From Euglena gracilis (lineage: Eukaryota), in the NCBI GenBank assembly GCA_039621445.1, contig CP154954.1, positions 21,252,642-21,277,680 of the forward strand: a stretch of 25,039 nt of DNA. The letters run 5' to 3'. Position numbers and translations under genes: made by a program. How positions within the stretch are numbered: the stretch's first letter is position 1; each line of letters starts with the position of its first letter. A model generated the notes under the pieces. It was not told the origin of the DNA. It searched no databases and saw only the letters and a program-made list of their open reading frames with translations. Of this stretch, positions 448 through 22,750 are shown one piece after another.

Positions 448-484
448 GTCATGCGAAGGTGATCCGCTCCCAGCCCTACAGCCA
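448..484 (+). CDS. Gene 1 exon: (G)HAKVIRSQPYS(Q)
   Basis: Continues the DUF4397-like pattern ('KV..NLxY'). Both flanking introns have pairing ends. Confidence 0.75.
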
Positions 485-702
485 GATCAGAGATTTTTTT
501 TTTACGTTTGGTGTCCCGGGGGGGGGGTCAAGCAAAGTGGGCACCCCCCCCACTTCCCTCTATTTTCAGTGCGAAGCGAAGTCGATTTTGGACCCCAGAA
601 TTGACCCCAAAAGTGCCCCCCCCCCCCGCCGCCTGCCCACCCCAAGGGTTCTTGGGTGGGACCGGACCCCCTCCCGTGGTCCTAAAAAAAATGCCTGAGC
701 CG
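485..702 (+). other. Nonconventional intron made of a TIR element with a 7/8 TSD
   Basis: CAGAGATTTTTTT ... AAAAAAATGCCTG; flanks AGCCAGAT (480-487) / AGCCGGAT (698-705). Confidence 0.8.
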
Positions 703-760
703 GATCTCGGAGTACGTCACCCTCCCGGTGGGGCCGGCCCACATCACCGTCCGGGTTCGC
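703..760 (+). CDS. Gene 1 exon: ISEYVTLPVGPAHITVRVR
   Basis: Typical DUF4397-like 'SxYxxLPxGxxxITVR'. In-frame junctions at +4 CAG / -8 CTG introns. Confidence 0.85.
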
Positions 761-1505
761 AACCAGGCCGTCTTTCCTGCTTTTTGTGTACCCATCCTCC
801 AGGTTTCCCCGCCAGACCGGCCCCACCCCACACTACCCCATCCTTTAACATCCTATGGTCCCACAACCGCTTAGCACCCCCCCCCCCCGCGTCCAACCAC
901 CAAATAGTCACCCCAGAGGGAAAAATGCTGAAGAAGCAAGAGACAACACTGTGCAAAAACCACACGGTGTGCTGAAAATACAGGCAAGGTGGGTTTGCCA
1001 ATTTTTGGGTTTTGGGCAGAATTATAAAATTGACCAAAACGCTTTGTTTCACACTGCAGGTTTTATTATTTTTAAGGCAAAATTTTTCAAATGTTACAAG
1101 ACGGGGGTTTTAAGGTTTTTAAAGGTTTTTAAGGCATTTTGAGAATTTTTGAGAATGTTTAAGGCGTCTATTGTCCATGGGAGATGGGCGGTCAAAGGGC
1201 CGTCCGGGCATCGAACCAACGTCGGTCCAGGTTGAAAATAAAAAAAACAAACAAAACATTTTTTTTGGAGTTTGGGTGTATCGACAATGTTCCAGCGATG
1301 CCAGAAATCATTTTCCCCTCTGGAGTTGGCTTGCTTTTTTTTGCTGAGATTTTACGACTTCTTATTTTTTTGCTGGAAATTCGCAAAAAAAATTCCGGAC
1401 GAATTTTTTTAAAGGTTGTTGAAGGTTTATTTTGAATTTTTTTCAGGCATTTTGGAAAAAAAGATTCCTCCCAGGGACGACAGCAGTGGCTGGCCGCCTG
1501 CCCGG

Positions 1506-1558
1506 AACTCCACCACGCTGCTACGGCAGGAGCCGGTGCACCTCCCGCCGAACCCCAT
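1506..1558 (+). CDS. Gene 1 exon: NSTTLLRQEPVHLPPNP(M)
   Basis: GC3-rich. In-frame join via intron 761-1505 (CAGGCCGTC pairs with GGCCGCCTG). Confidence 0.75.
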
Positions 1559-1651
1559 GGCCAGGGCCCGCGGTGCGCCCGGTGCAGTCTGTTGCAGCCC
1601 TCTCGGCCCCGTCTCCTTGGGGGTCCGTTGTGCCACGCAAGCCCTGTGGTG
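1559..1651 (+). other. 93-nt nonconventional intron, in frame and stop-free
   Basis: CAGGGC at +4 pairs with GCCCTG at -6. Removal gives NPMTYVVFG. Confidence 0.7.
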
Positions 1652-1696
1652 GACGTACGTGGTGTTCGGGACGTACGCTGCTTTGAGGACCAACTG
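1652..1696 (+). CDS. Gene 1 exon: TYVVFGTYAALRTN(W)
   Basis: DUF4397-like 'YTVxxxG' strand, followed by GT donor GTGTGC at 1697. Confidence 0.75.
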
Positions 1697-3293
1697 GTGT
1701 GCCCCTCGTGCCTCCATGCCTGCAGTGGCACTGCTCCATTGCTTGTGCGACCGTTTGGTGTGCATGGACTGCTCGACATCGCGTGAGTTGGGTGAAGTTT
1801 CGTCGCAATGACATTTAAGGGAGAACAAATGCGCCTTATCTTTTTTTGTGTGTGTGTGTTATAAAATCCATGTGTAGTTCTTTTTGATCACCATTTGAGG
1901 GAACTCAAAGTTGACCGAAACGTGCATTTACCTGGAGGTTCTTTTTGATTCAACAAATTTTTTGGAAAACGTTGAATGGCAGAGTCTCTGCCAATATTTC
2001 TGGACGTTCTTGGCGACGGACAAATATTGATAATGTGGTCTGCAGCCAAAGTGCAGAAATTGATTGGAAATGACAAGCAACAGTCGAAATTACCAACGTG
2101 GCCGAGCATGGTAATTTTTGGGTGTGACTATTTGTGCCTGAATGTGTCCTTTTTTTTTGTGGTGTTCAGCAATTTTGATGTGAGTACCTTTCCCAGTAAC
2201 TGTCGGGATTCAGGGAGAACACTGGCAGACCGTCTTCTGGGCAAAAAATCTCGCGACCACACCTCTTTTCGACCTCGACAAAGCAAGGATTGTCCCGAAG
2301 CCAAAACGAAATTTTGCAGAGAGGAATGTGTCCATTTTCAATTAAGCCGTGAACCCCGAAGCTGGAATGTCGTGTCAAAGCGTCGTGTACCTTCTCCTGT
2401 GCCTTCGCCAGATGGGGTGCAACTGAATCAAATAAATCAGAAAAATCAGGTGTTGTCGTGCATTCTTGAGACCGAACGACCCAGTGTTTAAGGTTTAAAA
2501 GTGCTATTTTTAGCATTTTTCGCGATTTTCGGCCATTTTTTTGTGGGTCCCCCGGGACCCCCCCCCCCCCGGGGCCCCAGGAGGTGGGTGGGTGGGGGGG
2601 GACCCCCCGGTCTAAAAACCCCTGAACTTGACCAGGGCCCTGGCTGGATTTTTCTGTTCAAAAAGTTAAGTCACAGGTCACAGGTCGATGTCGGGAACCC
2701 TGCACGAAGCGAAATGACTGATCCAGAACTCTGCAAATGTGAAATGCTTATGACGTATCAACGGTTGTCTTGGATGATGCGTGATGCGCAGGGCGGTCCT
2801 CAAGGGACGGGTGGGCATTTTTTTTTTATTTAAGGACCCCCTCCTCAAGCGGCCAGCAAACGGCAGGTCCGGGACTCGAGCGGGGTCGAAAAGTTAAATT
2901 TTAAAAGAACCAGTTTTGGAGTTTGGGGTTGGCGACCGTCAAAGGATGCCAGAAATTTCATTTTCCCCCCAATGTCGACCTTTTTTAGCCAAGAAAATGT
3001 CGATTTTTTCCTGTGGATTTTCTGTTGAATGTGCCGAGACAGCAGAGTTTTTTTTGATTTTTTTTTTAAACTGCCCTGGTGATTGGTTCCGAATTACCAT
3101 GACTGGCCAGGCAGCCTCACCCATTGGTGTACAGTGAAGTGCTGCCTGATTCCCAACATCGACAGATGGACCGCAAAGCATCCTTCTACGGGCTTGTTTG
3201 CTCATCTGCAGCCCTGCAGATGAAGTGCAGGAAGTATGAGCCACGCCGGGGGACCCTGGGGACCGCTCCGCCATGCCCCGGGGTCTGGCTCAG
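1697..3293 (+). other. Conventional GT-AG intron
   Basis: GTGTGC...CTCAG; in-frame join NW|YSD. Confidence 0.75.
2789..3078. mobile_element. CAGGGCGGTCC-family MITE nested in a GT-AG intron
   Basis: TIR CAGGGCGGT/ACTGCCCTG; flanks GTGATGCG/GTGATTGG. Left end nearly identical to 10210. Confidence 0.7.
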
Positions 3294-3417
3294 GTATTCG
3301 GACAGCTGGGAGTACGCGCCCGACCAGGCGGCGCTGCGGTTCCTGCACCTCTCTGAGGGGACGGCGGCGGTGGACATCAAGCTGGCCGGCGTCGGCACCT
3401 CCATCCAGTGGGAGCAT
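3294..3417 (+). CDS. Gene 1 exon: [41 protein letters not shown]
   Basis: CAG acceptor at 3291-3293 and GT donor at 3418. Matches the second DUF4397-like repeat 'AxLRFxHLSPDAxAVDI'. Confidence 0.9.
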
Positions 3418-3591
3418 GTGTGCCCCCCCCACCCGCCTTCCCTGCATCAAGGTGGCTGCCCTCCCCCCCCCCACAGCCCCACACAGGGGCATCCTGGGCA
3501 TTCTGGCTGTTCACGGAGATTTATGGAAGCGCAAAAACCCCAGTGGAACACCTGACACGACAAGAAACCAACAGTATGCTTGACACGATGG

Positions 3592-3624
3592 ATATGTATA
3601 TATCTTTATATATATACATATATG

Positions 3625-3701
<77 letters not shown>
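3592..3701. repeat. (TA)n microsatellite
   Basis: Direct reading. Confidence 0.95.
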
Positions 3702-3702
<1 letters not shown>

Positions 3703-3704
<2 letters not shown>

Positions 3705-4203
3705 GCAGCGAATCTTTACTTGGCCCGTGGGCCGAGTAAAGACTCCGGGGGGGGGGGTCCATATAGCATCCCCGCGTCCGGCGTTCCCCCCGTTTCGGCC
3801 CCGCGGGGCCCCGGAACCGCGCCGGATCCGGGCCAAATCGGTCGGATCCGGGGAGATTTCTCACTTAATTGGAGGTATAGGGTTAGGTTTGGGTTTGGCA
3901 TTTTTCCGGTCCAAAGTTAGGCCGGAAGTTGGGTTCCGTTTTGGGAAGATTTTCGAATCACCCGTTTTCCCCCAAAAGGCCCCGAAGGGGCCCAAATCCC
4001 CCAAATTTTTGTCCGCCCCGCTACCTAAATCCTCCCCAAAATCCCCAACGGGGGAGCCCTCCGGGAATTTGGTCGCGCACCTAACCCTATTCCAAAAAAT
4101 AACCCCGAATTCTCCCGAAGGTCGGACGCGGGGGATGCTGCACGGACCCCCCCCCCCCTGGAGTCTTTACTCGGCCCGCGGGCCGAGTAAAGACTCGCTG
4201 CCA
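3703..4203. mobile_element. MITE with ~80-bp TIRs containing palindromes, inserted in (TA)n
   Basis: TGGCAGCGA...TCGCTGCCA termini. Perfect 36-bp palindrome at 4161-4196 and a near-perfect one at 3713-3742. Confidence 0.85.
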
Positions 4204-4216
4204 TATACATATATAT

Positions 4217-4701
4217 AGAAGCAAGATTCTATTTGCCCCCCCCCCCCGGGGCCAAGTAGAATCTCCAGGGTGGGGGGTCCGGGTAGCATCTCCTGCGTCC
4301 GCCCTTCGGGAAAATTCGGGGTTATTTTTTGGGGTAGGGTTAGGTGCGCGACCGGATTCCCGGAGGGCGCCCCCGTTGGGGAATTTAGGGAGGGGTTCGG
4401 CCGAATTGTGGGCGAATTTTGGGGGAATTTGGGTCGAATTCAGGCATTTTGGGGGCAAAATGGACCATTCCAAAATCTTCCCAAAACAGAACCCAACGGC
4501 CCAACTTTTTTCCGAAAACGTGCCAATTTTCGGCGGGCCAATCCCAACCCTAACCCTATTCCTCAAATTAAGTGCCACATCTCCCCGGATCCGACCGATT
4601 TGGCCCGGATCCGCTGCGGTTCCGGGGCCCCGTGGAACCGAAACGGAGGGAAGGTCGGACGGGGGGGGGGATGCTACCCGGACCCCCCCCTGGAGATTCT
4701 A
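4217..4701. mobile_element. Second, diverged copy of the same MITE family in inverted orientation
   Basis: Inverted repeats TAGAATCTCCAGGG...GGTCCGGGTAGCATC / GATGCTACCCGGACC...CTGGAGATTCTA. Interior is the reverse-complement homologue of ~3745-4160. Confidence 0.8.
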
Positions 4702-4835
4702 TTATATATATATTATATATATATATATATGCATATACACACATATGTATATATGTATGTATATATGTGTGTATATATGTATATTTTATATGTATATGTG
4801 TGTATGTATATTATATATGTACACATACATATGTA
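4702..4835. repeat. Degenerate TA/TG microsatellite
   Basis: Direct reading. Confidence 0.9.
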
Positions 4836-4837
4836 AA

Positions 4838-5001
4838 TGGTGGTAATTTTAGTACCCCCCGGGGGGGTGCTATAGTTCACTCCGCGATGGCCATCGAAAA
4901 TTTTTTCCCATTCTCGTCCTCGATCGCAGGTTGTTTCGGGGTTTTTTTTTTTCGGCCAGGGGGAGGCGCGCGACAGGGGGTATTAAAGTTCCCACCTGCC
5001 A
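4838..5001. mobile_element. Short MITE in a TA-rich tract
   Basis: GGTGGTAATTTTAGTACCCCC vs GGGGGTATTAAAGTTCCCACC; right end CTGCCA as in 3703-4203. Confidence 0.6.
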
Positions 5002-5100
5002 TATATGTATATGTATATATATACATATACATATATATGTATATATACATATCTATGTATATATATGTATCTCTCTCTCTCTCTCTCTCTCTCGCTCTCT
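5002..5100. repeat. Degenerate (TA)n followed by (CT)n
   Basis: Direct reading. Confidence 0.9.
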
Positions 5101-5123
5101 ATGCCCGTGGTCTGGCTTTTCAG

Positions 5124-5327
5124 GTGCCGTATGCCTCCGCTGGCGACTTCCAAACTGTGGCCATTTCCACCGCTCCGCTCCGCTTCTCCGTCACGAACGC
5201 CTCCGGCGTGGCCGTCGCCGGGGCGCTGGTCCCGACCCTCACCGCGGAGCAGTCGTACACGCTGGCCCTCCTGGGCCCCTCCGCCCAGGTCATCACCCGC
5301 CTGTTTGGCGGCTACAACCCCCTGGCC
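5124..5327 (+). CDS. Gene 1 exon: VPYASAGDFQTVAISTAPLRFSVTNASGVAVAGALVPTLTAEQSYTLALLGPSAQVITRLFGGYNPLA
   Basis: TTTTCAG acceptor, strong GC3 bias, DUF4397-like 'VxY...YTLxxxG'. Confidence 0.9.
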
Positions 5328-5682
5328 GCCCAGCGGGGGGGGGGGGGGTTGGATGGGTAACCAACTTTGGTGTGCGGCGGACATCGACCTTCTTTTTCTG
5401 TGCTGTTTTTGTGTCCGTGTTTTCGTGTCTTCTGTGCAATTGTTGACTTTTGCGCCGCGGAATTACCAAATGGTGAATTTCCGCCACAATGTGGAGATTT
5501 TTTGAGGCGAAGTGTATTGCAAACCGTGGCGCGGACCCCTTCGCGCCACCGAGTGCCACGCGTGCATTTAGGAACGGGGGCGGCATCACGCCGCTTTCCC
5601 GTGTTGCCGCCCGAGGCAGTCAGTCAGCTCTGCCCGGCGGAACCTCTCTCCCCCGGTCCGCCCTGCCGCCCCCGCTGGCCCC

Positions 5683-5801
5683 GGCCCCCCCAAGCCCTCG
5701 GGCGCCGCGGTGCCGGAGCCGGGCGACCCCCCGCTGGAGCACTGGCGGCGGGTCGGTACCGTGGCCCTGGCGGCGAGGGGGCTCCTCCCCCGGCCGAAGG
5801 C
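5683..5801 (+). CDS. Gene 1 exon: GPPKPSGAAVPEPGDPPLEHWRRVGTVALAARGLLPRPK(A)
   Basis: In frame after intron 5328-5682 (CAGCGGGGG / CCCCCGCTG at +4/-6). GC3-rich. 3' boundary approximate. Confidence 0.7.
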
Positions 5802-6175
5802 GGCCGAGGGCGGGGGCGGGGAAACAGGCTGCGCCGTAAAAGTGCAGTGCGAGAGGAAGGACGGAACAGCGCGTCGACGGTGCAAACACGCGGCGTTCCC
5901 ATTTGCCCCATGATGCCTGCGTTTGCACAGAAGTCTGAATTGCGGGGGAAAACGACCTCCGCCGTTTCCCCGAATTCGGGCATTTTTTACGGCAACGCCT
6001 GCAACTCCCCGCATTTTTCCAGCAACGTCCCTGTTTTCCTCTTCACGATGGCCCCTGGGGGTCTTCCGAGTAATGAAGAAGCTTGATTCGCAATTATCTC
6101 AGTTTTTTTTATAACGGAGGCCAAGGCCACAACCATGCCGTAGGCAGCCGCTTCGCGGGGCAGCGCCCTCCCCCC

Positions 6176-6248
6176 GGTGCTGAGCGCCGCGCTGTGCTGC
6201 TTCCACTGCCTCGCCCAGCGGGGGCTGCTCCACAGCTGCTACATCCAC
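6176..6248 (+). CDS. Gene 1 exon, Cys-rich: VLSAALCCFHCLAQRGLLHSCYIH
   Basis: All codons end in G/C. Flanking intron ends pair (GAGGGCG/CGCCCTC and GTCGGGGA/TCCTCGAC). Confidence 0.7.

Positions 6249-6335: not shown

Positions 6336-6511
<176 letters not shown>

Positions 6512-8465: not shown

Positions 8466-8468
<3 letters not shown>

Positions 8469-8540
<72 letters not shown>
8469..8540. repeat. (TG)n microsatellite
   Basis: Direct reading. Confidence 0.95.
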
Positions 8541-9044: not shown

Positions 9045-9127
9045 ATGCCCACACCGGGGCCGCCCGCCCTGCTCCTCGCCCTCCTCCTGACCCTGGCCTC
9101 TTGCGGCAGTGGCGGGCCTGGGCCCCC
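9045..9127 (+). CDS. Gene 2 (Methyltransf_24-type SAM methyltransferase) exon 1 with signal peptide/anchor: MPTPGPPALLLALLLTLASCGSGGPGP(P)
   Basis: ATG followed by hydrophobic ALLLALLLTLA. Joins in frame to the downstream exons. Confidence 0.8.
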
Positions 9128-9130
9128 CTC

Positions 9131-9517
9131 CAGGGTTTGATATGAGGGCGTACATGGTTTAGGTGGGGGGGGTGTCCCCCCCCCTCCTGGCCCGCAGGGG
9201 GGGGGGTCCGGACCACCCCCCCACCTGCCAGGGGGTCCGGACCGACCCTCGGGGGGGTTCCCGGGACGCCCCAAAAAGGGTCATTTTTTTCCTCCGGCGC
9301 TTCGCGCCGAAAATTTTTTGCATTTTTGGCACATTTTTGCCCAAAAAAATGCCCAAAATGGCACTTTTGGTCGTTTTGGGGGGTCAAAAATTTTTCGGTA
9401 ACCCAGACCGCGCACCTGTTTAGGTGGGGGGGGGTGTCCCCCCCACCCCCCCTCCTGGCCCGCGGGGGGGGGGGGTCCGGACCCCCCCCCCCCCACCTGT
9501 CCTTATATCGAACCCTG
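9131..9517. mobile_element. Non-autonomous hAT-like TIR element forming essentially all of intron 9128-9522
   Basis: 17-bp TIR CAGGGTTTGATATGAGG / CCTTATATCGAACCCTG (15/17). Perfect 8-bp flanking repeat CCCCCCTC. Internal direct repeats at ~9158-9228 and ~9418-9499. Confidence 0.85.
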
Positions 9518-9522
9518 CCCCC

Positions 9523-9546
9523 CTCCTCGCTGGCGCAGCTCACCGT
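9523..9546 (+). CDS. Gene 2 micro-exon (24 nt): SSLAQLT(V)
   Basis: Bounded by two introns with pairing ends in the +4/-6 register. Frame is maintained. Confidence 0.75.
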
Positions 9547-10060
9547 GCCCAGGGCCGGCCCGGAAGTGGTCTGTTGGACCCGGGGGGGGGGGGGGGTTGG
9601 GAGCCCAGGGCCCCACTGCCCGGACAAAAAAAACCATCCACACAAAACCCCCCAAAAACCCACAGAACAATTATGGGAAGCTGCCCCAATTTTCCCCATG
9701 TTTCCCCCCGTAATTTTTGTCTTGTGTTGCAAGCCGCCGTCAGGGGCAGTCAAATGACACACACAGAAATACGGGGTGATGTAATGCTGTCAAGTTTTGT
9801 GTTTGTTTTTGAAATGAAAGACCACAACAAAGCGACCAGGAAATCATTTTGACCGTTTGAATTCTTGAGGTTCTTTTTTGCCAAAAAAAACTTCAAACAA
9901 AAACTTAAATGTTAAATTTCCCCATTTTTTTTGCATATGGGAAATCATGAGAAATCAAAAGAATTTCCATGATTTTGATTTTTGAGCTGTTTCCATAATT
10001 TTGTCTCGCATAATTTTTGTCCTCACCCCAACCTCTTGGTCCCTGGCTGGCCCCGGCACT

Positions 10061-10126: not shown

Positions 10127-10209
10127 GCCCAGAGCTGGGGGGTTGCTCGAGGCCGGCCGAGCATCCTTAGTTCCCTCGTGGTCCGCCCGCCGTCACAATC
10201 TGAATCAAC

Positions 10210-10520
10210 CAGGGCGGTCCACAAGGGATGGGAAGTTTTTTTTTCAAAGGATTGCCCCTTAAGGACTGCCTTAGGCCCAAGGGAGGGCCAACGGCCGGTC
10301 TGGGGATCGAATGAGGGCAAAAATCAAACGGTCGGAGAACGTATTTTTGACGTTTTGGGTGGATGGGCGATGGTCCAAGGACGCCCGAAATCACTTTGTT
10401 CCCCGAAGTCGACCCATTTTTGCCACAATACGGCCCTTTTTCCGTCCATTTTTTCCGATGAATTTTTCATTGACTGTGCTGGGACAGGCAGTGTCTTTTT
10501 TCCCGTTAAGGACCGCCCTG
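10210..10520. mobile_element. CAGGGCGGTCC-family MITE nested in a nonconventional intron
   Basis: Perfect 11-bp TIR CAGGGCGGTCC/GGACCGCCCTG; flanks GAATCAAC/GCACCAAC. Confidence 0.8.
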
Positions 10521-10693
10521 GCACCAACTCGTCGAGTTACGGCCCGCAATGTTTCGCGGAGAAAGTCATTTCCTCTCCCCCAACCTTCCCCCCCCCCCCC
10601 GCGGACGTCGGCGAGCGGGGTGAGCATCAAAGTGTTCTGCTTCTTTCCCCCAAAGACGGACGCCGTCGTCCCCCCCCCCCGGCCCTGTCTGCT

Positions 10694-10773
10694 GAGAGGC
10701 CAGTTCGCCCTCCAGACCCTCTCCCACTGGCCGTCCTGCCGGCGGTATTACCTCGTGGACCTGTGGCAGCCCC
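10694..10773 (+). CDS. Gene 2 exon: RGQFALQTLSHWPSCRRYYLVDLWQP(Q)
   Basis: Completes ELGVQRG; 'YLVDxW' acidic motif II. 5' boundary uncertain by 1-2 nt. Confidence 0.85.
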
Positions 10774-11261
10774 AGGCAGGGCTGAACGGGAACCTGGGAA
10801 GCCCTCGTGGATGGGGTGGGGGAAGGTCGCAGCACCCCCGGGGAGGATGAAGGGGCACAATTGACTCCCTTTGGCGGCCTGGCTTTGCGGGGGGGAGTGC
10901 TCCAGCCCCCCCCCCCCCCCCCCCCCCCGGTGCAGTGGCCCGAAACGGCCTGAAGCCGCCTTGGCAACCATGGGTTGCCCATGGGCAGGCACCCCATGGC
11001 CTACGGCATCCCCCTCCCCGGCGGTGGTCGGAAGCTTTGCAGGGCTCGAACCCCGACCCCCACCCTGGTGGGTCGGGAGACCAACCCCCACCAACCCTTC
11101 CCATTTTCCCCCCTTCCATTTTTTGGTCAAAGTGTTGGTTAAAGCCGAGGGCCCCTTTCCCGGGGCAGTGCCAAACCGGGTGGGGAGGGGGTATGTGTGC
11201 GGCGGACGGGAGAGCCTACGGCACACTGCAGTGGTAGGTGCGGAACACCAAGGCCAGTCTG

Positions 11262-11334
11262 ATCCGGATAGATTATTGGTTAAGGTGTTGGCCTCACAAG
11301 CAGGAGGTCGTGGGTTCGAGACCCAGGTCCCGCC
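11262..11334 (+). pseudogene. Degenerate tRNA-Val(CAC)-derived sequence (pseudo-tRNA or SINE head)
   Basis: TAG..TGGTTAA (box A-like), anticodon loop CTCACAA, AGGTC variable loop, TGGG-TTCGAGA-CCCA T arm (box B). Acceptor and anticodon stems are mismatched. Confidence 0.65.
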
Positions 11335-11925: not shown

Positions 11926-12608
11926 CCCCAGCGCGAAGGTGCTGGGGGCCCAAAAATGCCATTTTTCAGGAAACGTGCCTCGGTTGGCCCAAGCCAGGAC
12001 ACAGAACAAACCCCCTCCTGGCAGGGGTTTGGCGAGGGCACCGGACGGTACCCTGGTCCCTTGCCCTTTGCAGTGATGGGTGGTGGGCTGCCCAAACAGT
12101 GCTGCCCTTGCTGGCGCTGCAAAAGAGGCCCTGGGAACCCCTTTCAGCCGCCATCAATCGCTTGAGGAGGGCATGAGAAATCGCTTGAGAAAGGGATGTT
12201 TGCTGTCTTAACAGGTCAGGGAAACTGCTGGAGGGGGAGATGGCCCTTGACAGCTTGGCCAAGTGCCAGGGGGTGGGGAAGCACTTATGTTTTGCTTGAG
12301 TTTTGCAAACCTTATCGGGCACATTCAAAATGAACGGATAAAATAATTTAGGGAACCAAGGGTTTTGATTCAGCGGGAAAAAATTTAAACCACTTCCGTG
12401 GAACAACCCTCCGCACCAACATGCCTGGCTCAGGCAGCACCAGGAAGTGCACCTGCTGACTGCGTGCCAGCGCGTCAAAAAAAGTGGGGGTTTCAAATAT
12501 TGGGGCATGGAAGGCTCTTTGCCGACACAGTGCCCTGTCCTTGGAAGCTTGGAAGCTCTTCTGGCATCCCGGCAGTGCCGGGGGTTGGAACGGCTCAGCC
12601 GTGCCACC

Positions 12609-12682
12609 GCCTGGCACCGTTCAACGCCTCCGTGGTCTACCTCCGGATGTTCACCACGGAGGCGGCCAAACGGATCCCCGAC
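12609..12682 (+). CDS. Gene 2 exon: (R)LAPFNASVVYLRMFTTEAAKRIPD
   Basis: Family-typical 'RxxSxEAAxxIPD'. In frame. Confidence 0.9.
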
Positions 12683-12853
12683 GCCATGGCCGGCGCTCGC
12701 TCATTTTTCTTTCCGGGCGTGGTGAGTTGGTGCATGTGCCCGGTGGCGTGCGTGCGTCGCAGGTTTCAAGCGTTCCCGTAATGGTCCACATGAGCTGTAT
12801 GATTTCCACAGCTTGTGAAACATAATGAAGGAGGTCCAAGGGCAGAGGGTGAG

Positions 12854-13155
12854 CAGACTTTTTTTTTAAGGAAGTACGCCGCCCCCCCCCCCCTGGGAGG
12901 GACAGGCTGGGGGGTGGGGGATTTTCGACCCCCCTCCCCCGTGGGATCGCATTTTGGGGCGGGTAGTGCTATGGCACGCCCCCCGCCCCCGGCGCCAACG
13001 GTGCCGGGGCCCGAAAATGGCCATTTTCAAGGGACAATTGGCTTGGTCAGCGGTCACTGGAGTCCAGATTAGGGGGGGGGGTTCCTGCTCTGGGCAGGCA
13101 CCGCCCAGCGCAAGGCACCCCCTCCTCCCCCCGGGGTCGGCAAACAGGCAGCCTG
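12854..13155. mobile_element. CAG...CTG element with a perfect 8-bp TSD, nested in intron 12683-13287
   Basis: AGGGTGAG (12846-12853) CAGACTTTTTTTTTAAGG ... GCAGCCTG AGGGTGAG (13156-13163). Confidence 0.8.
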
Positions 13156-13287
13156 AGGGTGAGGTTTCTGCCTCACCAAGGCCGCTCCGCAGCCTCTCTC
13201 CAGCAAACGCTGCGCACTTGCATGCGGCAGCCTCGGAGACTTGGCATGCACGCCCACCCCAGCTCTCCTCAGCACCCGCCGTGTCTC

Positions 13288-13352
13288 ATGTCCCTGGACT
13301 ATGTATACATCGACGCCCGGCACGACTACTGTGGGGTGATGGAGGACCTCCT
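13288..13352 (+). CDS. Gene 2 exon: MSLDYVYIDARHDYCGVMEDL(L)
   Basis: Hallmark Methyltransf_24 motif 'DxxYIDxxHxYxxVxxDL'. Confidence 0.92.
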
Positions 13353-14361
13353 AAGCAAGCACCTATGCCTAAAATGGCCTAAAATGGTCTAAAATGACTT
13401 TCTGACCCCCTATAGGTGGGGGTCCCTAAAATGGTCTGAAATGGCCTAAAATGGGGAAAATGCTGTTGCACAACACTTTTTTTTGTGAACAACTGAATCC
13501 ATTCCGGTAATGATTTTTGGTGTCTTTTGTTAATGTGGACGGCGAATGCTAATGTGGACGGTGAACAGTGCATTTGGTTGAAGAGCACAGCCCACAAAGC
13601 CCATTTTTCTGATCCCAATTAATATTAGTATCAGTCCCCAAATCCACGGCCCTCAAACTTCTTTTGGCGCTGAATTTTGAAGGTTTGGGCAGCTGTATTT
13701 TGTGAAGATTTTCAGAGAGCTTCCCATTTCGGCAATTTTCAACAACCATTTGGCACACAGTATCGAAGAGTTTTGCATACAACAACCAACCCAAAATGGC
13801 TAAAATTTTCCTAAAATATGGCGAATACAGCAAAATCGGACGAAAAAATACGAAAACAGGAGAAAGGGTCGAAAACATATGTCATTGCTGCGATCGTGGA
13901 CTAATCGTGGATGGGGAATAGACAAAAAAAAACAGAATCAAGGAAGCGGTAAATATTCCATTCTGCTTCAAACGCCATGTTTGACAGAAATGTAACACAA
14001 AAATAGAATAACTAACGTGATTTTAAGGAATTCAACATTCCTGAAGTAACACCAAATTGAAACGAAAGGAACAGCATTGCGCCTTGCTTTCTTCTTCCAG
14101 GAGAAACAAGAGGACAGTGCAGGAAAACAGAACGAAGACAAGCTTAGAACAACAAACGAAGCGATCAAATTGGATTTCACCGAGCAACAGCATCATCTTT
14201 AAAAAAACACTTCTTTTTGCGAAATCCCGCAAAAATGGTGTTGATTTCACAAAATACAAAAAGCCGGGCGCTGTTTTGGTAGCGCAAATAAAAACTTTTA
14301 ATATTTTCCCAACATTTTTTTTTTTTTTTTTTGAGTTTTTATTTTTTTTTTTTTTTTTTTT

Positions 14362-14413
<52 letters not shown>

Positions 14414-14769
14414 CCCCTTTTTTTTTTCATTTTTTTTTTTTTTTTTTTTGTTTCCGAAAAATATTTTCACTGCTGTAAATTTGAACTGTTCAGAATTCCT
14501 GTATGGGTATGAATTAAGATTTGTTGAGCTTCCCATGGTTTTGATCCAGTGTTCATGAATTTTGCACGCTTTTTTGGCTGTACGTTTATTATCACTGAAT
14601 AAGAGAAGGTTTGCAAACGTTATGATACAGTTTTTGGGAGAAAAATGCTGCAAAATTATGGTTTTCAGAACCCCCACCTGTGCCTTAAAATGGCCTAAAA
14701 TGGCCTGAAATGGCCTGAAATGGCCTAAAATGGGGAAATTTTTGGGCTTGACTATAGGTGCTTGCTTCT
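13353..14769 (+). other. Nonconventional intron with a perfect 14-bp terminal inverted repeat and subterminal GCCTAAAATG arrays
   Basis: AAGCAAGCACCTAT (13353-13366) / ATAGGTGCTTGCTT (14754-14767); flanks CTCCTAAG / CTTCTGAG. Confidence 0.88.
14314..14449. repeat. Poly(T) tract, ~135 nt
   Basis: Direct reading; exact length may be unreliable. Confidence 0.9.
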
Positions 14770-14858
14770 GAGCTACTGGCCCAAGGTGCGGGTGGGGGGT
14801 ATCTTCGCGGGGCATGACTTCTACTTTGCTGACCACTTCCTCTTGGGGAGAGATGACT
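14770..14858 (+). CDS. Gene 2 exon: SYWPKVRVGGIFAGHDFYFADHFLLGRDD(W)
   Basis: Hallmark 'WPKxxxGGxxxGHD'. Confidence 0.92.
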
Positions 14859-15120
14859 GGCGGGGCGATCTTTTCGGTGCTGTTTTCCACGTGCAACCTT
14901 TTCCTCGATTTTTTTCAAGTCATTTGTTGCATCTGGTCTTGTGCCTCTAAAAGCGAATTTCCTTTTATTTACACTTTCAAGAACCAGAGAGGAGAATTTT
15001 GGTTGGTTTGTTGCCAGATGACAGTAAAAGGTATTTCTTGGCAGTCCTGGAAAATGAGGCTCATTGCCCTGGCAACCCAACAATCCCATCCCGATGTCCA
15101 TGAAAAAGCTGCACAGCTGT

Positions 15121-15316
15121 GGTTAGGGTTCGGGTTAAACCCTAACCCTAACCCTACCTTGGTCCCTCGAAAGTGCCACTTTTCGGCGTGCCGATCCGAA
15201 CCCTAACCCCATCCCTCCAATTAAACGCGGAATCTCCGCATCCACCCATTTCTGGATCCGGCGCAATTCTGGGGCACCGCGGGACCGAAACAGGGGGAGC
15301 GTCGGACGCGGGGGTG
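15121..15316. mobile_element. Partial copy of the 3703/4217 MITE family with telomere-like repeats
   Basis: Colinear similarity to ~4510-4670 (GTGCCAxTTTTCGGCG...AACCCTAACCC...ACCGAAAC...GTCGGACG). Confidence 0.7.
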
Positions 15317-15601
15317 CACCTGCCCCTATGCCAACAGTCAAATATCCCCTGATCTGGCAAGTGCATGTTTTTTTTTTGCTGGTTTCTTTGTGATCCGGGT
15401 TGAATATTATTTTACAAATGTCAGATCCCACCCCCCCCCCCGGGGGGGGGCGCTTTGGCCCACGCCATGATTGACTGTAAGGCTGGGGGGCCAACCTTGG
15501 GGGCCAAGTTTGCATGTAGGGGGGGGGGCAAGTGCCTGGGGGGGGAGGTCGAGCAGGATGGAATCCATGGGGGATGGGGGTGGGGAAGGGCGCCCCCCGC
15601 C

Positions 15602-15671
15602 GGTCTCTTTGCCACAACGGGGAGCGGCACGCGGAGGCCGTGAAGGGCGCGGTGGTGGAGTTCGCCCGGGA
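15602..15671 (+). CDS. Gene 2 exon: SLCHNGERHAEAVKGAVVEFAR(D)
   Basis: 'VKxAVxEF' helix, GC3-rich. Intron 14859-15601 pairs over about 14 nt. Confidence 0.85.
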
Positions 15672-17407
15672 CTCAGGTGGCCGAAATGGCACAAACCTGG
15701 TGGCCACACCCTGCTTTGGAATGCCCAGGAGTTGCAGCCCCACGGCTGATGATGGGAAGTCCCATGGGCGGTGGGGCGGGGGGGGGGGAGGGCGGCACCG
15801 GCCCTGCCTGTTTGTCCCGGGATGGTTCAGGTCAAGCTTTCTCAACGCAGTGTTGGCGGGTGGGTGGCCCCCACGGTCGTTCCCCGCAGCACCGCCCCGT
15901 GCAGCCATTACAGTCCCGTGTTCTTCCCCGGGGTGTTCTGTGGCTGGGCGGATGGGGAGGGCTACCCTAGTTGCAGGCAGCCAGCCACCAACCCCAACCA
16001 GCCCCTTCAAAGTTCTCCGCAACCTTTTGCTCAATCCAGGAGTTCGCCAATCGGTGGCTTAATTTCGATTTGGCGTTGTTTTTATTCGAAGGTTGCCCGC
16101 TTGGCCGAGCTCAATGTTGCTGGGTCTTTGCAGAAAATTTAGCATGCAAAGGTCCAAACCTTTTCAGCAGAGGGTTGGAAGCCTGTGCCTCTAAAATGAT
16201 CCCTGTTGTAGACATCGACGGGTGGGTGGGGAACCCGCATATTTCTGTGGTCAAATCCAACCGATCTAGAAGGGAGCTGGTCAGGAACATCTGGTCAGGA
16301 TTGACTTTGGTGGCCTAATGTCATCCCAGCACCATTCTTTTAAAATAAAATAAGATTGGCTGGGGGGGGGGTGTCATCTGGGGGGGATTCACTTTTTTTG
16401 CATTTTTTTTTGATTTTGGCAAAAGCTTTTTGTCTTTTCCCTGCATTTTTTTGATTTCAGCCGTAAAACGTTTTCGAATTAGAATAATTCTGCATATTGG
16501 ACTCCGATTTTCCCTGAGACCAAGCACCTCCAGCGACAAATCTGACAAATTCTGACAATCGTGGCAAATCCCGACATATTTTTTTTGGCCTCTAGATGTG
16601 TGGGTTCGGACAAATCTTGTCAAATCCCGACAACACTCAAAATTATTTAAATTAAAAAATCTTTTTGCAAAAATAATTTTTGGACAAAAGGATGGACGAA
16701 GTTTCCCAAAAGGAATGTTTATGACTTTCCTGAATTTCTTTGCTTTTCTTTGTTTATGCTTTTTGTCTTCACGGGTTGTTCTAAAAATGAGAGCCGTTTT
16801 CTTTGGTGTTGGTTCAAAAGGAGCTTGTTGTCAGTGAGCATAAGTTTTATGTCTCAACAACGATAGGGCCACTATTTCCATCAAGAAGACGGTCAAGAAG
16901 TCAAAATGTCATTAATTTTCCTTGTTTCCCGCAGACATCATTTTGCTTGAATTTGAGATTAAAAAAAGCTTGGCATTGTCCAGCAGCTGGTTGAAATTGC
17001 TATGTAAGTGGATTTGCATTAGAGCACTGGTGTATGTGGCAATTCTCATGAGAATCGACCATTTCCAACATTAATGTTCTATTTCCCAGGCCTCCTTTTT
17101 TCCTCCGCGGTTTTATCTCTGTGCATCAGAGATGAATGTGTTGTAGATGCAAAACGTAGGCATCGTAGAAAAATATCAGTGGTCCTTGGACAATTGTGGT
17201 ATGCAATCCAAGAAATCATTGCAAGGAGGATGATTTTAGGATGCTAAGGTTTGACAATTCTTGCAATTCCTGACAAAGACAATAAAATATCATGTGTCTG
17301 AAGGTGATTTCCAGTATGCCCCCCCCTTGTCTTTTTGTCCACGACCCTCACTCATTGTGGAAGATGAACCTTTGCTGGCCCCTGGTTCAAGGCAAATGTC
17401 AGTGGTG

Positions 17408-19983
17408 CAGGGGGGGATATGAAGCGCGCATATTCTTCACATATTTTGCATATTTAGCACATGTTGGCCAAAAAGTGCATGTTGTGTATATTTAGCACAT
17501 ATTCCGAGAGTTTTCAGAATTTCTGCCACATACTTTACTCATTCCATGTCTTTTGGGGCCGTTTGAATTTTTCCAACCATTTTAAGCCATTTGCTTTCAT
17601 CTCAGGCGGTGCATCTCGCATTTAAGCTTTTTTTTTGGTCGATGTGCGCATTTTCGCAAACCGACCAAAAACCACTTTGATCGCCAGCGTTACAAGGGGT
17701 GAGAGCAAGGGGCAGCAGGATTGGACAAAATAAGAGCGATTTCTCATTTTTGGCACTGACTCTCCCAGGAATTATGTGTTTTTTTGCTGTTTTTTTTTAG
17801 GTTGGAATGTCACAAAAACCCCCGGACCTATCCCCCCAAAGTGAAAAAAAACACCGACAAAAACTCCAAAACCATTGTACCGCCACCCCCATTCCCTGTG
17901 TGACAGCTGCCAGCGCCAGGTGGTGCTCTGGAGGTGGGGTGCAGGTCCATCCCTTTGCTTGCTTTTTGAAGTTTTGCGACACGTTGTGGAGGTTTTTGAA
18001 GTTGGTTACGAAAGGAGTGGAAGTGCACATGCCACATGAACAATGCACTGTTCGAGAATTCTGCCACCGAGGGATGATGAAGAGGATACAGAACACAGCA
18101 GGACTGCCACCGGTTGCCCATTGAGTTCGGTGGCAAGTTGTCCATCAATGCCCCACTGATGTTTAAGGCTCCGTGGCACCAACGCAACGTCATAAATGAG
18201 GTCGGTTTGCGCAAATGCGCACATGGACGATGTGCGCATTTGCGCACATGGACGATGTGCGCATTTGCGCACGCCGACGCTTTAAAACCAACCAAGAGCC
18301 TCCAATGGCAGTGTGTTTGGAGCTGGAAAATGAATATGGCAACACTGTGATATTACCTCCCTGGTATTCATTTGGTGCTGGACCCCTCTGTTGAATGCTG
18401 CTGGTATGTTTGGGCGGTTGGTGTGCGCAAATGCGCACATCAGCCATTAAAATGGTTGCTTTTCACAACTGTGGGCACCAACCAGAACTATTTTTCATTT
18501 TGAAGCCTTGGCAACAGGGATTTCTGCCACAAGAGAAGGATCGAAACAGGAGGAGAGCAGATTGTGGGGGTGTTGTGCTCAAAGTGGTGGTGTTGCAAGG
18601 TACGTCTGAGAAGGTCAAATGAAGTGTGTCGGTATTTTTAAGTTAGTAGACACATCCATTTCAAGCCAATGTATTGTGCCTCATTTTGAGACTAAAAAGG
18701 GTGAAGGGCACTTTTAAACTCGTTTTTTTTTGGATAAAACCTGAAGATGTTGTTTATTTTGATGTTTCAGGGGCTAAGAAATGGTTTTTAACAGGCTCAA
18801 TTGCCAATGCCCAAATTTGGGCCCGCAGGCTGGTCATTCTGTTGAGTTTAAGTAAAACAGAATACCTTGCATTTAAGGATTTTCAAACTGCAGTGGTGCC
18901 ACACCCTCCAAATGATACGTGGGTTAAGTTGCAGAAAAGGTTGGCGTGCACAGATGCGCAAACCGACCAAAAAGTCTGGTTTCGCATTTGCACAAACCAA
19001 CCACTTGAACAAATTTACAAACACACCAATTGCAGCTGGCACAGATGGTCTTTTTCACAGTTGCACAAACGGCTGGTGTGCGCATTTGCGCACCATCTAT
19101 TTGCGCACACCATCTATTTGCGCATTTGCCCGCCCACCAATATCTCACATAGACAAGTTTCAGGTTATTGTTTCAGGCGTATGCCCACCCACCAAATCGT
19201 TCAGTCAATATCCTAATTTAATAAGACAGCCATTGTAGGATTCTGAACACACCTGCTGGGTGTAGTCTATATTATGTGCTGCGGTGATTCCTGCTCCTAG
19301 GCACCCTATTTGCCAAAGTCCCTGCTCCCATCTCCGCGTCCTGTGGCAACACATCACATCCTCCCTACATTTTTTTTATATTTTCGGGGTCGTATCTTGT
19401 CATTTTCATAAAAAATGTCGATGTGCGCAATTGCGCACATCGTCAAAGAAAAAAGCTTAAGTGCGAGATGCGCCGCCTAAGTTCATTTCGGAGGCATTTT
19501 CGAGCTTTTTTTTTTCCAATTTCGGGCCATTTTTTTTAACATTGAGCAACTTAAGGCCATTTTTGGGCCATTTTGGACCATTTATGGTCATTTTTGGTCA
19601 TTTTCTATCATGGTTGGCCTTTTTTTTTGAGAAAATCTGCTGCTTTGGTCATTTGAGCCATTTTCCATCGCAAAATCATTGTAATTTGCTGAAAATGGCC
19701 AAAAACGACCAAAAAGAAAATAGGCCCAAAATGGCCCGAAATGATGGGAAAATGGTCTAAAACAGCCGATTGTGCCCGTTGTGGGCTGAAATGGCCCCAG
19801 AATGGACCAAAACGGCTTGAAATGACTTGCTGGTTGGGTCATTTGAATATGTCCAAATATGTCTCGGTTCCAGGAAAATTGTATGTATATTCAGCATATT
19901 TTTCCGCATTTTTAACGCATATCCCTGCATGTTTTAGCGCATATTTGGGGGAGCTTTTTAGCGCATATTCCCCCCCCCCCCTG
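17408..19983. mobile_element. Probable TIR element (CAGGGGGGGATATG...CATATTC(n)CTG) with GCATATT subterminal repeats
   Basis: Inverted termini and GCATATT arrays at both ends. TSD not clean. Confidence 0.5.
17603..19479. mobile_element. ~1.9-kb TIR element with ~48-bp TIRs and TGCGCA palindromic repeats, nested in the previous element
   Basis: CAGGCGGTGCATCTCGCATTTAAGCTTTTT...GATGTGCGCA vs TGCGCACATC...AAAAAGCTTAAGTGCGAGATGCGCCGCCTA; TTCATCTC/TTCATTTC adjacent to the ends. Confidence 0.85.
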
Positions 19984-20987
19984 GTGGGTAGTGGTATGGA
20001 CTGCATTCAAATACTGCCAATTCAATGAGGAGCAATTTGAGTTTGCTGCCTGAAATCTGCCTGGAATGAGTCCCGCACTCCACAAGTAAGTGATGACAAG
20101 ATTCCATCTCATGGGTCAACCACCTTGTGTTTAACACACATCATTTGCCTCGGATCAACCTTTTCCAAAATCATGTTGCTGGGACCCCACCTCCAGTGTT
20201 CAAACCCCGACAAGTCCTGACAAATCTTGACAATTTCAACAAAATGCCAAGCTTTTGGAGGTGCTTGCCTGAGACCAATCCTTTTTGTCATTTTTGAATC
20301 TTTGGCCAATAATTTGCATATTTGCAAATAGAATCAGATTGGTATCAAATAGTAAAAATCATGTGATTTTGATGTTTTTTTTGTAAAAAATCCATAAAAC
20401 TGTGATTGCATTTCTTTTTCTTTTTTTGCATATTTGCAGGCTTTTTGCTTTTTTTCTCCGCTCTCTGCATCTTCTTTGAGGGTCCATGTTTTGCCCCCCC
20501 CCGACAGTCACATGGGTTTGGGTGAGGCACGACAGCCCCTTTGAGGGGGTTCGAAGCGGGTCCTTTGCCGGGGCCGCTGTAACATCTCGAATTCACCCAA
20601 TCAATGCATTCCAAGCTGCCCTCCGACCCCACCCCCTTCCTCCCCATCTGTCAAATCACGAGTGGGAATAGAATTTCCCAGGGCAGAATATGGCATCTTG
20701 GGTCGGGGGGGGGGGAGGGGGCTTGGCTGGAAGCACGAGGTGTGCACACCCATCGATGGCCCATCGGGGACCTTGTTTTTCACGGGTTTAGAGTGGGAAA
20801 ATATTTTCTTGGGGGAGGTTAGGTTGGGGGTTCCCCGGTTCGTGTCACGCCTGTACCACACCCAAACTCACTAAGGATTTTGGCAGTGGCAGCAGCATGG
20901 TCGGAGGCTCTCAGTTTGTGACAAAATTGATGTGCTGGGCTGGTTCTGTAGAGATGGTCTGGTGGTGCCATTCTGGCCATCTAAGAA

Positions 20988-21014
20988 CAACCGGTCCCTC
21001 TCCATCTGCGTCAC
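20988..21014 (+). CDS. Gene 2 micro-exon (~27 nt): NRSLSICV(T)
   Basis: Found through pairing of CAGGTGGCCGAAATGGCAC (15674-15692) with GTGCCATTCTGGCCATCTA (20965-20983). All codons end in G/C. Restores the frame to 22714. Confidence 0.7.
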
Positions 21015-21924
21015 GAGCGGCGAGGTGTGGCACCATAGCTTCGTTTTTCACGAGATTGCTGAACGCGAGGCAACCCTACCCCCCCCCCTTCAGGCCCCCC
21101 CGTACAGCGAATTCCCATTTCCCTGCCCAATCCAGTGCTTTCCCATAGAAGCTGTGTTGTTCTTTCCAAGCTGCTGCTGATGATGCATTCCTTTCTGAAG
21201 TGGCCAAACTGCATCAAAGTTGGTGGATGAAGGGTCTAAAATTGTGATGGGATCTGCACCTCCACACCTCCACAAAGTAGTTTGGGAGGGGGGATGTAGG
21301 GGGTGCATATTTTTTGTACGTTTAGCACCTTCTCCATCAGAATTTTCCTGCTGCATATTTGCTCGTTCTGTTTTTGACCACGCATTTTTGGGGTATTGTT
21401 TTGGAAAATTATTTAGGCCATTTTCTGTCACCAGACGTGGCATCTGCACATGGCAGGGAAAACAGAAATTCTTGGGAGGCAAAAGGTGAAGGTGAACGAA
21501 ATAGTTCAAACACATATTTCTGAAAATGTATTGTTTAATGGTTCCCAAGATGTGTTGTACTGAAATGAAATATGATGCTTCACATGCAGATGCTTCATTT
21601 GTTTCAGACATGTGTGTTTGATTAATATACAGGTGTTTGTTTTTTTTCCATTCTCTGTTTACACAACCATGAATTAGGCACCATGAAGATAGCATTAAGC
21701 AATTTCAGGGTCCTCAGTTTGGAACGGGGGGGGTGCATATAATTGGCTCTGAAACATATGTGGAAAGCATGTGGTGGTTTTGGTACAGGGCCCTTTGGTG
21801 TTTTTTTCAGAGCTCCCATTGGGTCAGTCATTTCAGGTTACAATTGAGGTTGGGACTGTTACTACCAAGCATTCCGATGATTCCGGGTGATGCAGGGCGA
21901 TGCAGGGAGATGCCATGCAATTTT

Positions 21925-22460
21925 GTGGCCATTGTTGAAAATTGCAGCCATTGGCCACTTCTGCCATTTCCCCCCCACTTTTTCCATGTTTGAGCACTTC
22001 TAGCCGCTTTTGGAGCTTTTTTTTTTGGCCGCTTTTGGTACTTTTCGGCCACTTTTGGCCAGCTTTAGGCCAGTATTGTCCATAATTGACCGTTTCTTGC
22101 TGCTTTTGGCTGCCTATGGCTGTTTTTTGACTGCTTCTGACTACCCTTGGCCACCTTTCGTCATTTAGCCGTAATTTTTGGCCATTCTTTTGACCATGTT
22201 GGCCATCTTTGGTTGCTTCCGAAGAAACAGAAAGGGAAGGCCAAAATTGTCCAAAATTGGCCAAAAGCAGAAAAAAGGGGCAAAAATGGCCAATGGTGGC
22301 CAAAAGGGCAAAATAGGCAACCAAAAATTGTCAAACGTGGCAAGGAGCAACCCGAACCAGCCAAAAGTGGCACACGTGATCAAAAGGGCTTGGTTCCTCT
22401 TGGCTGCTTTTGGCTTGGCCAAAATCGAAATGACCAAAGTGGACAATAGGCTGGCCAAAA
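21925..22460. repeat. Fold-back array of TTTTGGCC followed by GGCCAAAA units
   Basis: T-rich TGGCC units up to ~22230, switching to the A-rich complement thereafter. Confidence 0.65.
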
Positions 22461-22517
22461 GTGTCCAAGCCAAGAAGCAGCAAGCACCTTCGCGGACCGC
22501 AAAAACGGCGCATGGCG

Positions 22518-22559
22518 ATGCGGGCCCCAAACGGGATGCGGGCCCCAAACGGGATGCGG
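22518..22559. repeat. 18-bp tandem duplication GATGCGGGCCCCAAACGG x2.3
   Basis: Direct reading. Confidence 0.9.
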
Positions 22560-22713
22560 CACGCCAGGCAGGCGCTTCCCACCACTGTGCGCCCCTTTCA
22601 TCCATGCGTTCAGCCGCTCTTGACCATTCCAACCATTTCGGGGTCACTGTGGGGTGTGTTCCGCATGGTCCGCCCGGAACCCTCCTTGGCTGCCTCCCCA
22701 CCTCCCCGGTGCT

Positions 22714-22750
22714 GCGGGACCTCTTCCCCTCGTGGCTCATCCGCAAGCCT
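22714..22750 (+). CDS. Gene 2 exon: RDLFPSWLIRKP (continuation and stop uncertain)
   Basis: C-terminal 'PSWxxRK' strand. Intron 21015-22713 pairs at +4/-6 with Y|R junctions. Unspliced, the frame runs on to a stop at 22957. Confidence 0.75.

Follow-up and report, generated by a model that had tools for sequence, protein, structure and literature searches.

Eight-base-pair repeats and the possible transposon origin of nonconventional introns at a Euglena gracilis locus

Where do the nonconventional introns of euglenids come from, and does an individual locus still bear the marks of their insertion? Such introns make up 71.8% of the introns of E. agilis, and the 2025 genome-scale study that gives this figure (Nomura et al.; PMC12501133) calls their origin unclear in the text of the article. 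An origin from MITE-like elements (miniature inverted-repeat transposable elements) was proposed in 2014 (PMC3935182), and in a 2024 review the paired CAG/CTG ends are counted among inverted repeats, with mention of repeats that are like target-site duplications ("TSD-like"; PMC11282704). The question is raised here by a 25,039-nt stretch of Euglena gracilis contig CP154954.1 (positions 21,252,642 to 21,277,680; hereafter, the window), which is marked by poly-C/poly-G tracts, microsatellites, and numerous small inverted-repeat inserts. Two genes lie in the window, one for a DUF4397 protein (bases 1-6242), the other for a Methyltransf_24 protein (9045 to at least 22771). The analysis makes it probable that many, perhaps all, of the 16 nonconventional introns in these genes began as non-autonomous DNA transposons with terminal inverted repeats that duplicated 8 bp of their target in the style of hAT elements.

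Direct repeats at the nonconventional introns

The repeats played no part in setting intron lengths and positions. These came from the spliced alignment of two proteins derived from transcripts, in which junctions were mapped with tblastn and exhaustive enumeration of the junctions that reproduce the protein. A search of EukProt with two exon translations returned one such protein each, EG_transcript_23625 (P0001, DUF4397) and EG_transcript_27551 (P0002, Methyltransf_24). Eighteen introns were mapped, all on the forward strand: 16 nonconventional introns and two conventional GT-AG introns (1697-3293 and 3418-5123), placed by the same protein alignment, that served for comparison. For each, the length was fixed, and the position could shift within a short, equivalent ("slidable") range. 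When joined in the nonconventional register, the exons reproduced 242/242 residues of P0001, and the transcript of the first gene thus matches this very locus. They reproduced 230/235 residues of P0002; because 5 of 235 residues differ from the exons of the window, P0002 comes from another allele or a paralogue. All intron statistics below refer to these two genes in one 25-kb window, with splicing supported at the protein level.

The first-pass annotation of this DNA had proposed that introns were gained through transposons with an 8-bp target-site duplication (TSD), and that the intronic parts of the duplication then decayed while the terminal stem was retained. In order to score the repeats, the 8 nt preceding the 5' inverted repeat were compared with the 8 nt that follow the 3' inverted repeat. 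All 11 scores that the annotation had listed were reproduced, and five further nonconventional introns were added (50-447, 5772-6175, 10127-10693, 14859-15601, and 15671-20989). The sixteen scores, out of 8, were 8, 7, 7, 6, 6, 5, 4, 4, 4, 4, 3, 2, 2, 1, 1, and 0.

The 8-nt repeat at this register is real. True pairs were identical at 64/128 positions, with five of 16 pairs scoring at least 6 and three at least 7. Mismatched pairings of 5' with 3' 8-mers (n = 240), a control that preserves base composition and any junction consensus, averaged 2.775/8, with 3/240 at 6 or more and 0/240 at 7 or more; no derangement among 73,559 sampled attained a sum of 64. When repeat lengths of 2 to 14 were compared, the match fraction was 0.50 at 8 and 0.28 to 0.40 at the others, so that only 8 stood out. 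Along the diagonal given by intron length, the block from -8 to -1 matched at 63/112 positions versus 93/350 in the flanks (25 neighbouring positions) for the 14 introns that are 8 nt longer than their stem-bounded core (Fisher test, P = 2e-8). A profile over 13 introns had sharp edges, with per-position counts falling from 8 to 4 upstream and from 9 through 5 to 1 downstream. Thus, within the window, both shuffled pairs and other repeat lengths bore out an excess at 8 nt in the register first described.

It could be argued that the similarity reflects a preference at splice junctions (pyrimidine|purine at both), together with chance and selection by the earlier reader. A purine does follow the 3' junction in 15 of the 16 introns, and four of the seven matches at intron 10774-11449 (CAGG) could stem from a CAG|G consensus. 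However, the shuffled pairs retain just such a consensus and fall far short of the true ones. The 8-mers also differ between introns and so are not a splice consensus, and the same kind of repeat is found at elements outside exons. This explanation seems to us hardly credible.

The signal is carried by six introns. The only perfect repeat among them belongs to the 395-nt first intron of the methyltransferase gene (9128-9522), an element of 387 nt (9131-9517) plus 8 nt, at which CCCCCCTC occurs twice, at 9123-9130 and 9518-9525 (8/8). The ends of this element, CAGGGTTTGATATG... and ...TATATCGAACCCTG, pair, and the folded RNA had a terminal stem of ∼20 bp (z = -7.0; 0/100 shuffles as stable). 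Seven positions matched at the 218-nt intron 485-702 (element 488-697; 8-mers at 480-487 and 698-705, AGCCAGAT/AGCCGGAT) and at the 676-nt intron 10774-11449 (element 10777-11444; 8-mers at 10769-10776 and 11445-11452, GCCCCAGG/GCGCCAGG). Six matched at the 1417-nt intron 13353-14769 (element 13356-14764; 8-mers at 13348-13355 and 14765-14772, CTCCTAAG/CTTCTGAG), whose element ends in CAAGCACCT... and ...AGGTGCTTG, and at the 1087-nt intron 11522-12608 (element 11525-12603; 8-mers at 11517-11524 and 12604-12611, CCATCCCC/CCACCGCC). Five matched at the 745-nt intron 761-1505 (element 764-1500; 8-mers at 756-763 and 1501-1508, TTCGCAAC/CCCGGAAC). An internal stretch of the last intron, 1263-1318, is related to 2914-2968.

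The other ten introns, with scores of 4/8 or less, averaged 2.5/8, slightly below the shuffled mean, and the "4/8" cases therefore carry no information. These ten are 5328-5682, 5772-6175, 9547-10060, and 21015-22713 at 4/8 (the 3' 8-mer of the last ends at 22716); 14859-15601 at 3/8; 50-447 and the 93-nt intron 1559-1651 at 2/8; 12683-13287 and 15671-20989 at 1/8; and 10127-10693 at 0/8. The 4/8 of intron 9547-10060 was obtained in the 8-nt register with an 11-pair stem containing one mismatch (A.C, at the second pair); an alternative pairing with a length excess of 2 nt was dropped. In the eight low scorers that are 8 nt longer than their core, the diagonal block matched at 24/64 positions versus 52/200 in the flanks, a difference that was not significant (P = 0.083).

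Intron anatomy and the splicing code

A paired terminal stem, of 3 to 20 pairs, was present in 16/16 introns. Intron length exceeded the stem-bounded core by 8 nt in 14 of the 16 and by 9 nt in two, namely 10127-10693 and the 5319-nt intron 15671-20989 (core 15674-20983; 17-pair stem), both with spacers of 3 and 6 nt; an exact match to P0002 would shift the start of the latter to 15669 or 15670. Repeat identity was correlated neither with stem length (rho = -0.11) nor with intron length (rho = -0.06; 16 introns). The stem was thus kept regardless of repeat identity, as had been claimed; the missing correlation with stem length agrees with stem retention and yields no clock.

Where the two 8-mers of an intron differ, the protein can limit the position of the junction. 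P0001 has Q rather than R at intron 485-702, so that the junction there cannot precede position 5 of the 8-mer, and at intron 11522-12608 the protein demands a junction at or before position 5. One fixed cut would therefore split the 8-mer 5|3, that is, 3 nt before the stem and 5 nt after it. Knock-in tests have defined the Euglena splicing code as N3-CDG...CH'G-N5-6|R: a spacer of 3 nt is required on the donor side, that on the acceptor side measures 5 nt (6 being tolerated), and N stands for the bases of both (PMC12501133). Because the 5|3 split equals these N3 and N5 spacers, excision would remove the core and exactly one 8-mer, and the published spacer lengths with their free bases fit both a 3 + 5 = 8 excision and free drift of the spacer bases.

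In other respects the introns resemble the nonconventional introns of euglenids already described (Milanowski 2014, 2016; PMC12501133). Those introns lack GT-AG ends; CAG- and CTG-like motifs pair at +4 and -6, with 3 and 5-6 nt as spacers; the downstream exon starts with a purine; and the junctions are slidable owing to direct repeats. Euglenid introns of this type leave the pre-mRNA as circles, independently of the spliceosome; at this locus, removal is supported by the protein matches given above. The strict CDG (+4 to +6)/CH'G (-8 to -6) motif was present in 7/16 introns, and the published share of introns with the full signature is 61.2% (PMC12501133). The downstream exon began with a purine, which is the reported preference (PMC12501133), in all introns except 9128-9522. 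In 15/16 introns no GT-AG or GC-AG register was compatible with the mRNA; the exception, 10774-11449, acquires GC-AG ends when slid to 10776-11451. What differs is the treatment of the repeats. Direct repeats were reported at 84.4% of E. agilis introns, and Nomura et al. set these slidable introns aside from their motif work (PMC12501133), whereas Milanowski 2016 read the sole 8-nt repeat of that study as a product of break repair (PMC4770533). No statement of an 8-bp duplication, of N3 + N5 as a TSD, or of a transposon superfamily was found in the article texts that a literature search covered; Table S3 of PMC4770533 and Fig. S3 of the supporting information of PMC12501133 may hold data on repeat length.

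These observations suggest a route from transposon to intron. An element would insert in an exon and duplicate 8 bp of the target, and in the pre-mRNA its two inverted repeats would pair. The nonconventional splicing machinery would then cut 3 nt upstream and 5 nt downstream of the stem, removing the element together with exactly one 8-bp copy and restoring the reading frame that preceded the insertion. The 3 + 5 bases of the duplication within the intron, having no sequence role, would drift, while the paired ends and the spacer lengths would remain under selection.

It is possible that the element with the perfect repeat, 9131-9517, inserted recently, escapes splicing, and leaves this allele disabled, the transcript having come from an uninterrupted allele or paralogue. 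P0002 does derive from another copy, as judged from its five differing residues, so that splicing of 9128-9522 from this allele is presumed from the protein of a different copy. In addition, its downstream exon begins with C, the sole pyrimidine among the 16 introns, where a purine is preferred (PMC12501133). Against this, 9131-9517 contains the N3-CAG...CTG-N5 core of the code, its terminal stem is strong, and every other exon of this copy is intact. A disabled allele is thus unlikely.

A more far-reaching proposal is that in the whole Euglena code, N3-CAG...CTG-N5, a single kind of transposon is preserved as a fossil, with CAG/CTG as its terminal motif and N3 + N5 as its 8-bp duplication. 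We put this forward tentatively, as somewhat less probable than its negation. If it were true, the machinery would erase exactly such insertions, and only elements that duplicate 8 bp could therefore colonise exons; the large nonconventional share of the E. agilis introns would then be explained. The proposal predicts a genome-wide peak of identity at 8 nt that fades with the age of the element family. The signature is countable, consisting of an 8-bp duplication that is split 5|3 by the cut into spacers equal to the experimentally defined 3 and 5 nt, and together with the empty-site comparison described below it makes the idea of a MITE-like origin testable on hundreds of thousands of mapped introns. 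Were it found genome-wide, it would account for spacers that are fixed in length and free in sequence and for the slidability of most junctions, and it would indicate a specific class of transposase to seek.

Elements outside exons and the transposon class

Evidence that the repeats originate in DNA comes from elements at places without an exon to be restored. One is a 3,747-bp noncoding element (16521-20267) nested in intron 15671-20989. It has the same ends, CAAGCACCT... and ...AGGTGCTTG, as the element of intron 13353-14769, and on either side of it lies one copy of a perfectly duplicated 8-mer, CCTGAGAC (16513-16520 and 20268-20275). A copy of the repeat surrounding this element lies at 22850-23141 and represents a paralogous "empty site" with a single TCTGAGAC at 22953-22960. 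The copy aligned with the left flank up to 22960 (74/96 bases identical) and with the right flank from 22954 (135/169 bases identical). As judged from this comparison, one 8-mer at the empty site corresponds to two at the occupied site, which is an 8-bp TSD for 16521-20267. The 9-mer CAAGCACCT occurs five times in the window versus 0.16 expected, and four of the occurrences terminate core 13356-14764 and element 16521-20267, one at each end. The fifth, at 22481-22489 in intron 21015-22713, stands alone: the window contains no exact partner for it, and it may mark a family member that has been broken. The 3.7-kb element also contains clustered palindromic repeats rich in TGCGCA (17600-19450); for example, 18201-18278 is self-inverted at 85% identity, and 17601-17665 matches 19417-19481 at 85%.

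Three smaller elements repeat the pattern. A 311-bp element at 10210-10520, nested in intron 10127-10693, has ends CAGGGCGGTCC... and ...GGACCGCCCTG and 8-mers GAATCAAC/GCACCAAC (6/8). Its 290-bp relative at 2789-3078, inside the conventional intron 1697-3293, has 8-mers GTGATGCG/GTGATTGG (6/8). The two have diverged (66% identity over 299 nt between 10210-10520 and 2789-3055), and both have CAGGGCGGTCC ends. On the forward strand at 23985-24122, an element of 138 bp, whose ends are CAGGGTTG... and ...CCAAGCCTG and whose 8-mers are CTCCCGCC/CTCCTGCC (7/8), fits the published splicing code; a protein search with 23269-23412 returned no transcript protein for this region. Because three of these four elements (16521-20267, 10210-10520, and 23985-24122) were spotted through a filter on flank identity, 2789-3078 alone having been found by homology and then scored, they illustrate the pattern and add no statistics. 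A further copy of one family at ∼11659-11925 (family D), with flanks matching at 3/8 and unclear ends, was left out of the count. An end similar to CAGGGCGGTCC (one mismatch, minus strand) lies at 5655-5665, which is 12 nt inward of the 3' stem in intron 5328-5682, and may be what is left of the end of an element that was nested or older. Copies of a GC-rich module that are 70-82% identical recur at 586-691, 2543-2608, 9429-9475, and 11804-11919, which fall within intron 485-702, conventional intron 1697-3293, element 9131-9517, and intron 11522-12608, respectively; this recurrence suggests composite or nested elements.

With these elements in hand, repair of double-strand breaks can be weighed as a source of the repeats. 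Staggered fill-in or microhomology could leave direct repeats as scars around captured filler DNA, an explanation that Milanowski 2016 offered for the eight-nucleotide repeat of a gapC intron (PMC4770533), and intron gain through such breaks in Daphnia (cited in PMC4770533) likewise left short direct repeats at recent junctions. However, that model predicts no inverted terminal repeats, no recurring end motifs, and no single fixed repeat length. In the window, the repeat length is fixed at 8, paired inverted ends directly abut the repeat in every case, end motifs recur across independent insertions both in exons and outside them, and the empty-site comparison reveals a clean insertion. Break repair is thus a very unlikely source of these repeats.

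There is good support for a transposon origin with an 8-bp duplication in about one-third of the introns and in several of the elements outside exons. The behaviour expected of a TSD (specificity for 8 nt, additional elements, and an empty site) upholds the part of the first-pass claim that concerns gain by such transposons; the gradient of repeat identity that it describes is not upheld, since scores of 4/8 or less are indistinguishable from background. A parallel is provided by introners, which occur in Micromonas, Aureococcus, dinoflagellates, and other groups; these DNA elements have inverted ends and a TSD at the junctions and survive in exons through removal from RNA (PMC11282704). In contrast to the 8-bp duplications cut 5|3 described here, those of Micromonas and Amoebophrya are 3-5 nt long, and there the element or its duplication supplies one spliceosomal splice site (PMC11282704), whereas the ends of the present introns are noncanonical and 15 of the 16 have no GT/GC-AG register that could play this part. 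Introners also make up introns of different genes as numerous near-identical copies; the relatives within this one 25-kb window share 66-77% identity.

As to the class of transposon, the hallmarks of hAT elements are an 8-bp duplication and YARNG ends (PMC3014272). YARNG fitted 17/40 element ends, compared to 1.2% of all 5-mers, and many ends read CAGGG or CAGAG. The other 23 ends deviate from YARNG, among them the CAAGC ends that mark the family documented best, and no transposase was found in the window: none of four long open reading frames (ORFs) in 15520-19213, three of them inside 16521-20267, had a Pfam match. The assignment is therefore drawn from duplication length and end motif, and the elements are called hAT-like rather than hAT. 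The P and Merlin superfamilies also make 8-bp duplications. Targets of the nTnnnnAn type are preferred by hAT elements; the ten best 8-mers had T at position 2 in 4/10 and A at position 7 in 5/10. Non-autonomous hAT elements share with the present ones the 8-bp TSD, short terminal inverted repeats, and ends beginning CAG or TAG. Maize Ds, as Giroux reportedly described in 1994, can be spliced out as an intron; the difference is that removal from RNA would here be guided by a hairpin and not by cryptic GT-AG sites.

Single or mixed origin and the age of the introns

How far the transposon reading reaches beyond the six high scorers depends on the ten introns at background, and the scores are as compatible with decay to background as with several origins. 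Under a mixture, only the high scorers would be transposon insertions, and the low scorers, which never had an 8-bp duplication, would have arisen from converted conventional introns, from other element families, or by copying through RNA; the series 8, 7, 7, 6, 6, 5 and downward would then be no age series. Beyond the background scores themselves, such a mixture is favoured by the two introns with a 9-nt instead of an 8-nt excess and by the non-CAG ends (GAG, GGG, ATG, and CGG) of several low scorers. Conversion between intron types has been proposed (Milanowski 2014; PMC3935182), and a metagenomic methyltransferase homologue with GT-AG introns (L010:1-1318) has introns at positions shared with 10127-10693 and 10774-11449. 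On the other side, the architecture of stem and spacers is common to all 16 introns, the eight low scorers with the 8-nt excess retain the small, nonsignificant excess in the diagonal block given above, and neutral decay at eight unconstrained positions reaches background anyway. We consider a mixed origin rather doubtful and read the low scorers as putative old insertions of the same kind.

Several results nevertheless weigh against an origin of all 16 introns from hAT-like transposons. The repeat signal is present in only 6/16 introns, and extending a transposon origin to the other ten is an extrapolation, given that they lie at background. A blind scan for inverted repeats across the window gave a weak result: at the correct register, 8 candidates had flanks of at least 6/8 versus 0-8 at 18 control shifts, and 4 had flanks of at least 7/8 versus 0-2. 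The scan, with 413 candidates after 3580-5100 was left out, was swamped by TA/CA microsatellites and chance pairs and is not counted as support alone. Relatives identified within the window by self-BLAST were only 66-77% identical. The missing transposase, the ends that deviate from YARNG, and the pyrimidine after 9128-9522, an intron whose excision from this allele is presumed, belong on the same side.

The homologue L010 bears on age as well. Two of its four introns lie at the codon boundaries of 10127-10693 (0/8) and 10774-11449 (7/8), after GVQ and after Q before D/P, which also counts against the transposon reading of these introns; the probability that two such positions coincide by chance may be roughly 0.03. 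This sharing suggests either that the positions are old and have switched intron type or that introns arose in parallel at CAG|G sites, and a tree of methyltransferase homologues gave no firm placement of L010. For 10774-11449, a position occupied by a GT-AG intron in a distant homologue, together with the slide to GC-AG ends and final four matches that also follow from the conventional CAG|G consensus, is awkward, as it is not what a young insertion predicts.

The window itself cannot show that repeat quality tracks intron age, and nothing in it dates the introns. The word "continuing" in the claim of continuing intron gain has two perfect duplications behind it, CCCCCCTC and CCTGAGAC. In favour of a link between identity and age is an E. 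agilis gapC intron that is specific to a strain and hence recent, the only demonstrably recent nonconventional intron in print, which has an eight-nucleotide direct repeat, longer than those of the other introns analysed in that article (PMC4770533).

Scans of the window with ARAGORN and Rfam gave no match. P0001 stops at residue 270 (…HSCY), and the frame of the window is open beyond this point, from 6242 (IHVGDATR…); either P0001 is truncated or another intron lies downstream. Two inverted elements of ∼0.5 kb (self-match 3588-4830; 74% over 1305 nt) are situated in a TA microsatellite inside conventional intron 3418-5123, and their ends differ from the CAG type. The fragment 15168-15317 is related to them (77-79%), and next to this fragment, in intron 14859-15601, there is a telomere-like CCCTAA/TTAGGG palindrome (15121-15153). 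The stretches 14290-14450, 6340-6440, 8470-8540, and 3600-3700, located within introns and between the genes, hold long tracts of poly-T, (CA)n, (GT)n, and (TA)n.

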